Origin: Escherichia coli
GTDB lineage: Bacteria > Pseudomonadota > Gammaproteobacteria > Enterobacterales > Enterobacteriaceae
DNA length: 64,000 nucleotides
Direction: 5' to 3' (one strand)
NCBI RefSeq assembly: GCF_003334405.1
Contig: NZ_QOWM01000004.1
Positions 485-7,940 of this stretch are shown here, piece by piece. The notes beneath the pieces are model-generated. The model did not search any database. It was not told the origin of the DNA and worked only from the letters and a program-made list of their open reading frames with translations. Every line of letters starts with the position of its first letter. Position 1 is the stretch's first letter. Position numbers and translations under genes: made by a program.

Positions 485-652
485 TTTTATTTCTCCCTGT
501 CTTAATTATTAAAATAGTGTAACGCGATTATGTGGTTATGGGGGTAAACATTAAATAAACCAGCGGGGAGGGGAGGTAAAGTGAAAAAATAAAAAGCGGA
601 TAATCTTAATAAGCAGGCCGGACAGCATCGCCATCCGGCACTGATACGAGGT

Positions 653-5159: not shown

Positions 5160-6410
5160 ATGGAAAGTAAAGTAGTTGTTCCGGCACAAGGCAAGAAGAT
5201 CACCCTGCAAAACGGCAAACTCAACGTTCCTGAAAATCCGATTATCCCTTACATTGAAGGTGATGGAATCGGTGTAGATGTAACCCCAGCCATGCTGAAA
5301 GTGGTCGACGCTGCAGTCGAGAAAGCCTATAAAGGCGAGCGTAAAATCTCCTGGATGGAAATTTACACCGGTGAAAAATCCACACAGGTTTATGGTCAGG
5401 ACGTCTGGCTGCCTGCTGAAACTCTTGATCTGATTCGTGAATATCGCGTTGCCATTAAAGGTCCGCTGACCACTCCGGTTGGTGGCGGTATTCGCTCTCT
5501 GAACGTTGCCCTGCGCCAGGAACTGGATCTCTACATCTGCCTGCGTCCGGTACGTTACTATCAGGGCACTCCAAGCCCGGTTAAACACCCTGAACTGACC
5601 GATATGGTTATCTTCCGTGAAAACTCGGAAGACATTTATGCGGGTATCGAATGGAAAGCAGACTCTGCCGACGCCGAGAAAGTGATTAAATTCCTGCGTG
5701 AAGAGATGGGGGTGAAGAAAATTCGCTTCCCGGAACATTGTGGTATCGGTATTAAGCCGTGTTCGGAAGAAGGCACCAAACGTCTGGTTCGTGCAGCGAT
5801 CGAATACGCAATTGCTAACGATCGTGACTCTGTGACTCTGGTGCACAAAGGCAACATCATGAAGTTCACCGAAGGAGCGTTTAAAGACTGGGGCTACCAG
5901 CTGGCGCGTGAAGAGTTTGGCGGTGAACTGATCGACGGTGGCCCGTGGCTGAAAGTTAAAAACCCGAACACTGGCAAAGAGATCGTCATTAAAGACGTGA
6001 TTGCTGATGCATTCCTGCAACAGATCCTGCTGCGTCCGGCTGAATATGATGTTATCGCCTGTATGAACCTGAACGGTGACTACATTTCTGACGCCCTGGC
6101 AGCGCAGGTTGGCGGTATCGGTATCGCCCCTGGTGCAAACATCGGTGACGAATGCGCCCTGTTTGAAGCCACCCACGGTACTGCGCCGAAATATGCCGGT
6201 CAGGACAAAGTAAATCCTGGCTCTATTATTCTCTCCGCTGAGATGATGCTGCGCCATATGGGTTGGACTGAAGCGGCTGACCTGATTGTTAAAGGTATGG
6301 AAGGCGCAATCAATGCCAAGACCGTAACTTATGACTTCGAACGTCTGATGGAAGGCGCTAAGCTGCTGAAATGTTCAGAGTTTGGTGAAGCGATCATCGA
6401 AAACATGTAA
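5160..6410 (+). CDS. icd: Isocitrate dehydrogenase (NADP)
   Basis: ORF track 416 aa, [38 protein letters not shown]...; full length with native-looking C-terminus ...[10 protein letters not shown]. Confidence 0.97.
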
Positions 6411-6433
6411 TCTCTCCATGTGTTAAATATTGA

Positions 6434-6462
6434 AACGGGCGTATAACACGCCCGTTGTTTTA
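6434..6462 (+). terminator. Rho-independent terminator downstream of icd
   Basis: Hairpin AACGGGCGT-ataac-ACGCCCGTT followed by a T-run (gtttt), about 25 bp after the icd stop. Confidence 0.6.
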
Positions 6463-6512
6463 TTTATGTGGATATTATTAATAGCATATCGAGCATATTT
6501 ATATGAAGCCCA

Positions 6513-6836
6513 TTACTTGAGCCCATATGGGCATATTTTTATAATGCAACTATTATGTAAACATTTATTTGTTATTTTGCTTTCTCCTGGAGGACACTCT
6601 TGACTGCTTTTGAGTAAACTCCATAAATCCTTGTTGAATGGTGCGATGTGATAAATAGTAATAGGATATTCTTTATCCTTAAGGATAATACCAGACTTAA
6701 CCGGTGTAAATATACTGCCAGGAGGGAGAAATATAGTAGATTGATACCAGATGATCATTTTCATATTACCCCATATGGCTGAAAAAGATATACCACATGT
6801 AGGTTGAATTACCGTGTCAATTACTATCCACTTCAT
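6513..6836 (-). CDS. iraM: Anti-adaptor protein IraM (RssB inhibitor; PhoP-regulated)
   Basis: ORF track 107 aa, [12 protein letters not shown]...ICPYGLK; expected size and position between icd and ycgX; AT-rich. Confidence 0.8.
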
Positions 6837-7297
6837 TTGTTATGTCTTATCCCACGGTATTTAATATGGTTCATTAGGATGTTTATTTCTTGATTTTGCA
6901 TATGAGTATATTACCCCCCCCTCAAAAAAATAAATTAATTAAAATGATGGCTTATATAAAATAAAATTTAAAGCAAGGAATCTCAATGGATGTTAAACAA
7001 AATGAGATTTTGTGAAAGCAATAAATTATTGACTTCGTTTTAGATTTGTTTAGCTATAATGTTATACATTCAAATGACTGAACATCCTGTAATTAAAACA
7101 TAGCCTTTATGCTACTTTGTGCCAATTTGCTAAACATTATGGTTGCCTTTTTATATAACGATAATAATGAATATAAGCATGACATGAGAATAAGGTTTCA
7201 ATTTTTGAGTTATATAGGAATGATTTAACCTGTTCCTGGCTAAAATACATATAACCGGATGATGACTAAACCAAAATACATGTGCGTTAAGTATTGA

Positions 7298-7327
7298 AAC
7301 GGACGTGTGGCACGGCCGTTGTTTTTA
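7298..7327 (+). terminator. Terminator-like hairpin; second copy of the icd terminator repeat
   Basis: AACGGACGTG-tgg-CACGGCCGTT followed by GTTTTT; about 33/40 identical to 6423-6462. Confidence 0.4.
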
Positions 7328-7535
7328 TAAATATGTTAACCGTTATAAAATAACGTATCAAAAGTCAAGTGATCACATTTCAAATATCAAGTTGATAGTA
7401 TTAGTCTGGTGATTATTTATGGGTGACAATAAAAAGACAGTATTAATCATCCATAGAGATAGTCTCTGCACTTTTATTTCCATTATGCTAATGCCTTACT
7501 GAATTATGAAGCATTTCTTAAGTATCCAACTTTAG

Positions 7536-7940
7536 CTAGATTAATGGTTTATTATTTTCTACATCTTCAATATATAAAAGCGTATTATCAATGGCGTAGT
7601 AACTGCGTTTGTTATGATTAACATCAGTAACCCACCGGAAAACGCCCGCGCCTGCCAGTGTTGAACAGTATTCCCGAAATGTAGATTTTCCGCAAATATG
7701 AAGCAATGCGGCCTCTTTTATTTTAGCAGGGTTCTTGGTCGTACTAACTTTTAACAGGTTCCTGGTTCCTCTTAATAACAAAACCGTATCATCGTGAGTA
7801 ATAATTCTGATGTTATCCGTAGCCAGATAATAAATGTAATGTGCAATACGGTGATGTTTTAATTCTGAATAAAACCAGGAGAAGTTTTGCTCTTTTCTCA
7901 CTTGCTCAAACATCTTTTGAAAAACAACGACCTGATCCAT
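7536..7940 (-). CDS. ycgX: DUF1398-family protein YcgX
   Basis: ORF track 134 aa; expected size and position upstream of bluR. Confidence 0.8.
   Translation of the reverse strand: MDQVVVFQKMFEQVRKEQNFSWFYSELKHHRIAHYIYYLATDNIRIITHDDTVLLLRGTRNLLKVSTTKNPAKIKEAALLHICGKSTFREYCSTLAGAGVFRWVTDVNHNKRSYYAIDNTLLYIEDVENNKPLI

Follow-up and report, generated by a model that had tools for sequence, protein, structure and literature searches.

A run of eight cytosines, closely followed by seven adenines, stands upstream of iraM in AT-rich DNA of Escherichia coli. The locus raises two questions: does the run change its length by slippage and, if so, does its length matter for expression of iraM? An earlier note on this DNA had suggested both, the second by way of altered promoter spacing.

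Direct reading of the plus strand of the window (the whole stretch of DNA analysed, 64,000 nt) gave C8, CCCCCCCC, at positions 6914–6921, T at 6922, C at 6923 and A7 at 6924–6930; the order around the tract is ...GAGTATATTA, then CCCCCCCC, TC, AAAAAAA and TAAATT. In iraM sense (minus strand) the tract reads U7-GA-G8. It is located 78–94 nt upstream of the iraM ATG, in agreement with the ∼80–95 bp given in the earlier note. The gene had also been named correctly there: the 107-aa ORF at 6513–6836 (minus strand) is iraM (ycgW), encoding the RssB anti-adaptor, and it carries this name in the RefSeq annotation of thousands of matching genomes. The C8 run lies in noncoding DNA between iraM and ymgK, and it is an uninterrupted mononucleotide run of eight units. 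The adjoining TC and A7 (6922–6930; U7-GA in the iraM-sense RNA) are invariant in the K-12-like allele defined below, and other alleles have A7 or A8.

Long C/G runs had been described as rare, and in the window this holds: there is no other C/G run of at least 7 nt, and runs of at least 6 nt are depleted (7 observed versus 19.6 in shuffles of the 64-kb window). With the composition of the whole window 1.17 C/G runs of at least 8 nt are expected, and one such run in 64 kb is not in itself unexpected; for the 699 nt of intergenic DNA around the tract (29% GC) only ∼3e-4 are expected. The C8 tract is the sole GC-rich element of the surrounding H-NS-type AT-rich DNA (27–29% GC). The A7 run is unremarkable on its own, since the window contains seven A7 runs.

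The tract is situated in a variable part of the genome. The iraM and ymgK genes occupy an 864-bp segment of 30% GC between 43-nt direct repeats of the icd terminator region, found by sequence comparison (the left copy at 6419–6461 and the right copy, 84% identical to it, at 7283–7325, both on the plus strand). Of 5,426 genomes, 1,037 matched a chimeric empty-site query over its full length, Nissle 1917 and ATCC 11775 among them. The flanking repeats and the empty sites thus place the tract on an accessory insertion/deletion islet adjoining the icd integration hot spot. The small ORF ymgK (14 aa; 7093–7137, minus strand), upstream of iraM, is known from annotation (PMC6001520). The predicted sRNAs Ssr35 and Ssr36 adjoin ycgW in Shigella; they are listed without a ‘Yes’ mark in the candidate table (PMC4782007).

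Over positions 6780–7060 the window is identical to K-12. It is not K-12 itself: e14 is missing from the interval between icd and iraM, and a K-12 derivative differs from it by 15 SNPs over 49 kb. Two further differences from K-12 NEB 5-alpha are single-nucleotide changes in homopolymers. One is A3 instead of A4 at 33811, splitting dadX into ORFs 33711–33905 and 33881–34780; the other, near ymgJ, is at 18237, with A5 where NEB 5-alpha has A6. Either the pseudogenisation is genuine or the source assembly has homopolymer errors at these points.

A 281-nt query covering the tract was compared with 5,426 complete E. coli genomes, and the region was found in 3,920 of them. Two large allele classes were seen, with 1,248 records at ≥99% identity and 2,199 records at 90–95% identity. 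The K-12-like allele is present in ∼1,340 of the 5,426 genomes, about a quarter; in an alignment of example records it has C7, C8, C9, C10 or C12 on otherwise identical sequence. The other alleles have CCCTTC-A8 (the commonest class), C5 or CTCCC on the plus strand, i.e. GAAGGG, G5 or GGGAG in iraM sense, at the same place. An uninterrupted long C run is therefore confined to the K-12-like allele; elsewhere the site has a short interrupted purine-rich motif.

To count tract lengths we used queries of 86–92 nt differing only in the number of C's, over the same 5,426 genomes; with queries so short, one mismatch or one gap is enough to bring the identity below 99%. The raw counts in the ≥99% band were 20 for C6, 153 for C7, 615 for C8, 281 for C9, 144 for C10, 76 for C11 and 49 for C12. 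These numbers were corrected downward, as ∼17–22 records per query were partial 100% matches; for instance, only three of the 20 records found with the C6 query were full-length exact matches, and the C12 query had 25 full-length matches plus two odd two-piece hits. The corrected numbers of genomes are 3 (C6), ∼136 (C7), ∼598 (C8), ∼264 (C9), ∼125 (C10), ∼56 (C11), 25 (C12) and 2 (C13). Gene diversity of tract length is ∼0.68 over roughly 1,210 genomes. The distribution is broad and unimodal, with C8–C9 accounting for about 70% of genomes, and has no bimodal on/off pattern.

Nine loci sharing identical flanks of 2 × 560 nt carried C8 (five loci), C9 (two), C10 (one) and C12 (one), that is, four lengths on one 1,120-nt flank haplotype. 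Such differences between loci with identical flanks indicate that the tract mutates much faster than the ∼1.1 kb of flanking DNA. The predicted slipped-strand length variation was thus confirmed across E. coli genomes, as C6–C13 on otherwise identical flanks in ∼1,200 genomes.

To find the outgroup state, genome contigs were scanned with a conserved 25-mer; the only match was a contaminant contig among those of an Oceanospirillum, which leaves the alleles within E. coli as the basis for the ancestral state. The contig in question (NZ_MTSD02000045.1, in the Oceanospirillum linum assembly; 558 bp, coverage 1.07) matches the window, and hence K-12, over the part read, namely the tract with its C8 and the upstream flank, and is evidently E. 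coli contamination.

The variation exceeds sequencing and assembly error. As a control we took the A8 run in the ycgL coding sequence (22601–22608): of 60 records sampled at even intervals from 5,420, only the last had an indel. This control is a run of A and not of C. Metagenome contigs, many with SPAdes-style names, were searched with a gapped pattern and carried C7 (two contigs), C8 (six), C9 (six) and C10 (one); C5TCC and C7TTC were seen there as intermediates. The finished genomes of three well-known reference strains have different lengths: MG1655-type has C8, H10407 has C10 and HS has C11. Independently assembled sibling and serial isolates agree with each other: NDM3/5/6 have C9, MLI023K1/K2 and DDG206/220 have C10, the Ec-050 T0/T5/T20 series and four MRSN isolates have C11, and ESY001–003 have C12. 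Lengths that are stable within clones and different between clones make the pattern of a microsatellite marker rather than of a fast phase-variation switch; the agreement among siblings and in time series argues against fast switching within clones.

Whether length could affect expression depends on where the tract lies relative to the iraM promoter. Induction of iraM/ycgW is ∼20-fold and requires active PhoQ (PMC5740661), and iraM expression was 0.09x in a Shigella phoPQ mutant (PMC5775216). On the iraM strand we found TGTTTA-acatc-CATTGA at 6999–6983, followed after exactly 12 nt by TAAATT at 6970–6965. Compared with (T/G)GTTTA-N5-(T/G)GTTTA, the PhoP-box-like sequence TGTTTAacatcCATTGA departs at three positions: its first half-site is perfect, whereas its second agrees at 3 of 6 and reads TATTGA in diverged alleles. 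The phoP P1 promoter at the start of the window has a perfect PhoP box, GGTTTATTTAATGTTTA (545–561, minus strand), then 12 nt and CATAAT. Since the spacing between box and hexamer is the same, we place the predicted iraM promoter here, with the predicted PhoP box at 6983–6999 and the predicted −10 at 6965–6970. The −10 hexamer is invariant in the allele alignment, and the segment with the PhoP-box-like site and the −10 is the best-conserved intergenic part, with no indels in any allele aligned. Transcription from this predicted PhoP promoter would start near 6958, the leader would have ∼122 nt and the G-run would be at about +37 to +44. The tract, judged from these sequence elements, probably lies in the transcribed 5′ leader and not between promoter elements.

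Supplement tables of Cappable-seq and SMRT-Cappable-seq contain no start for iraM (b1160), which is consistent with silencing in standard media. Against the placement of the promoter stand the three mismatches of the predicted box and two further PhoP-box-like sites, each with two mismatches, nearby on the opposite strand (6880–6896 and 7036–7052). The second, CGTTTTAGATTTGTTTA, falls within the spacer of a near-consensus TTGACT-20-TATAAT pair (7029–7060, plus strand) pointing away from iraM; this pair could be a divergent promoter or one antisense to ymgK, with a 20-nt spacing too long for a standard σ70 promoter. Further upstream, just downstream of ycgX, TTCATA-17-CATAAT (7482–7510, minus strand) is a ‘constitutive’ RpoD promoter assigned to iraM (Shimada 2014, PMC3946193); a long ymgL-ymgK-iraM transcript is therefore possible.

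Tract length might nevertheless set iraM transcription in a contingency-like manner. It could do so as part of the spacer of a proximal σ70 promoter, or by altering helical phasing or H-NS silencing downstream of the PhoP site, and lineages would then have heritably different levels of IraM, hence of RpoS. The only promoter-like pair using the tract as a spacer is TTAATT (6938–6933), 19 nt and TAATAT (6913–6908), the latter abutting the G-run on the minus strand. Its spacer has 16 nt in the commonest (CCCTTC) allele, 17–18 nt for C6–C7 and up to 24 nt for C13. The recurrent length change on one haplotype, the standing of the tract as the only GC-rich element in H-NS-type DNA and the H-NS site listed for the iraM upstream spacer (Shimada 2014, PMC3946193) would all suit such tuning. 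However, the promoter scan did not report the pair, which agrees with the consensus at only 7 of 12 positions, and C8–C9, the lengths of most genomes, give spacers of 19–20 nt, with which promoters are normally inactive; even so, lengths as great as C13 are still found. The weakness of the pair, its 16–24-nt range and its modal spacing make the promoter-spacing idea unlikely. The unimodal distribution, the stability of lengths within clones and time series, and the conserved, indel-free PhoP-box/−10 pair upstream of the tract also speak against transcriptional tuning by whatever route, and we consider it unlikely. The promoter-spacing role proposed in the earlier note is accordingly not supported: the predicted PhoP box and −10 are upstream of the tract, and the sole pair of the spacer type is a poor match to consensus.

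The leader itself offers another possible role, in translation. It contains a candidate upstream ORF of 22 codons (6833–6901, minus strand) with the ATG at 6901–6899 and the TGA at 6835–6833, so that the stop codon overlaps the iraM ATG (ATGA). In every allele type this frame is open and keeps its length, its start and its stop. The end of the G-run is 12 nt from the uORF ATG, and the run is the strongest site of anti-Shine–Dalgarno (anti-SD) pairing in the leader (−11 to −12 kcal/mol versus −4 kcal/mol upstream of the iraM ATG). At the same spot every allele has an SD-like purine motif (GGGAG, GGGGAG, GAAGGG, G5 or the G-run). Indels are absent from 6837–6913 across alleles, and several occur just upstream. 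The candidate therefore has the features of a leader ORF, namely an SD-like site, a start codon, an open frame and an overlapping stop, conserved among alleles, with a gap of 12 nt that is long.

The purine motif or G-run would, on such evidence, be the SD of the 22-codon leader ORF, and termination at AUGA would allow reinitiation at iraM, which is itself weakly equipped with an SD. As the run would grow on its 5′ side, the spacing between SD and AUG would stay fixed, and length would be tolerated or mildly modulating. Conservation of the uORF and its overlap with iraM suggest a leader ORF translationally coupled to iraM, and the indel-free segment and the strong predicted pairing point the same way. 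Against this, the gap between G-run and AUG is longer than optimal, an open frame of 22 codons has a probability of ∼15% by chance in AT-rich DNA, and the substitutions in the uORF are mostly amino-acid changing, i.e. there is no coding signature. Moreover, the uORF is not annotated in RefSeq records of the matching genomes, and the leader of the paralogue iraL has only ∼33 nt. We hold the translational role to be improbable on balance.

A mechanism based on leader structure was dropped, as shuffled versions of the predicted 152-nt leader fold at least as well (z = +1.29). A search of Rfam over 6300–7700 gave nothing at threshold; matches to SNORD72, L20-leader and tpke11 were sub-threshold chance hits.

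A more far-reaching reading is that the G-run may be a hypermutable descendant of a conserved SD-like element that drives the AUGA-coupled leader ORF, and that its length, or how strongly ribosomes bind to it, tunes IraM. We give this reading little credence. If true, it would mean lineages with heritably different RpoS stabilisation under PhoP-inducing conditions and a rare SSR-tuned regulatory locus in E. coli. The level of RpoS is well known to vary from strain to strain, and tuning of this kind could add to that variation.

It is very improbable that the true length is C8 everywhere and the rest long-read homopolymer miscalling: K-12 laboratory derivatives with C7 against C8 in MG1655, and one implausible assembly, fit such an artefact, but more than half of the K-12-like genomes do not have C8 and lengths reach C12–C13, the A8 control shows <2% indels, and the metagenome contigs, reference genomes and sibling isolates described above led us to reject it as the source of the bulk of the variation.

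The K-12 records deserve separate mention. About 10 laboratory derivatives read C7 while MG1655 and many K-12 records read C8; the C7 assemblies include NEB 5-alpha, DHB4, C3026, ER1709, NEB Turbo, the MG1655 derivative CP010442, DH5alpha and HST04. Several of these are NEB strains, reportedly sequenced with PacBio. NEB 5-alpha showed no excess of homopolymer deletions over 49 kb. C9 was seen in HUE1, a K-12-type strain with an e14 icd fragment, and in one O16:H48 mouse-gut isolate. The C7, C8 and C9 readings among K-12 records may reflect stock-to-stock slippage or technology-specific (long-read) miscalls. The implausible assembly is NZ_CM148374.1, which at 170–232 reads ...TATATT, T, G13, ATGAGTATATTA, C13, TC...; this inverted duplication has the tract at its centre and most likely arose as an artefact when a long homopolymer was assembled.

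What we regard as the probable explanation is a slippage-prone but clonally stable G/C microsatellite in the transcribed leader of iraM, with length variation that is nearly neutral. A G/C homopolymer of this size would be subject to replication slippage, gaining and losing units. Once the run had reached ∼7–8 units it would have become unstable, and lineages would have come to stand at the present 6 to 13 units. Lengths would be inherited stably within clones and differ between them, giving a polymorphic marker and not a rapid on/off switch. With the tract in the 5′ leader of the PhoP-dependent iraM mRNA, units would change within the run and leave the iraM-proximal sequence and spacing unchanged, which would explain why variation is tolerated. 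The broad unimodal distribution of lengths suggests that the variation is close to neutral. The tract is a real, strongly polymorphic microsatellite and as such an ordinary kind of feature; the earlier note was right in its mutational prediction and probably wrong in its promoter-spacing mechanism.

The class to which the tract belongs is that of the polymorphic noncoding mononucleotide repeats of E. coli. It has their defining features: a run of at least eight units in an intergenic region, several length alleles on conserved flanks and a mutation rate far above that of the flanks, making it useful as a typing marker. Two studies (Gur-Arie et al. 2000, Genome Res 10:62; Diamant et al. 2004, AEM 70:2464) reportedly had ‘ycgW’, the old name of iraM, among the loci used; the tract at 6914–6921 may perhaps have been described in them already. 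A full-text literature search combining ycgW with mononucleotide terms found no prior description of the tract. The scale of the present data, ∼1,200 genomes with lengths from C6 to C13, is apparently new.

Resemblance to promoters controlled by simple sequence repeats (SSRs) is only superficial. In Bordetella pertussis fim2 and fim3 expression is switched on or off by the length of a C-stretch that separates the site of the activator BvgA from the −10. The iraM tract is likewise a poly-C that varies by slippage, and the nearby promoter also belongs to a gene under activation by a two-component response regulator, PhoP in place of BvgA; it is, however, located downstream of the predicted activator site and −10. 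The G/C homopolymers of Neisseria meningitidis porA and opc also differ in length between strains; unlike the iraM tract, which is probably in the leader and is clonally stable, they lie in or next to the −35/−10 spacer and switch frequently in culture. In both comparisons the position required is probably absent from iraM, and fast switching is not indicated. Closer in position is the poly(G) of Moraxella catarrhalis uspA1, of about 9–10 units, which precedes the ORF without being part of the core promoter, as is predicted for the iraM tract. For uspA1, experiments reportedly showed that the G9/G10 difference changes the mRNA level. With regard to the leader, iraM resembles mgtA with mgtL and Salmonella mgtCBR with mgtM/mgtP, in that a PhoP-activated gene would have a long leader with a short ORF. 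In mgtL and mgtM/mgtP transcription attenuation is coupled to leader translation; the candidate iraM uORF, in contrast, would end within the iraM start codon (ATGA), an arrangement more suggestive of translational coupling.

The tract is, first of all, a well-documented hypervariable marker for typing of phylogroup-A-like lineages. Long-read assemblies can also miscall the length at this site, as the assembly with the G13...C13 artefact illustrates. Since K-12 stocks may differ (C7, C8 and C9 have all been reported), reporter fusions of iraM are affected. To our knowledge, long G/C homopolymers are scarce in E. coli and genes under SSR control are almost absent; it is therefore reasonable to consider a tract of 6–13 units, directly upstream of the gene for an RpoS-stabilising anti-adaptor, as a candidate for tuning the general stress response heritably. 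If its length does affect expression, published results on iraM may depend on the strain used.
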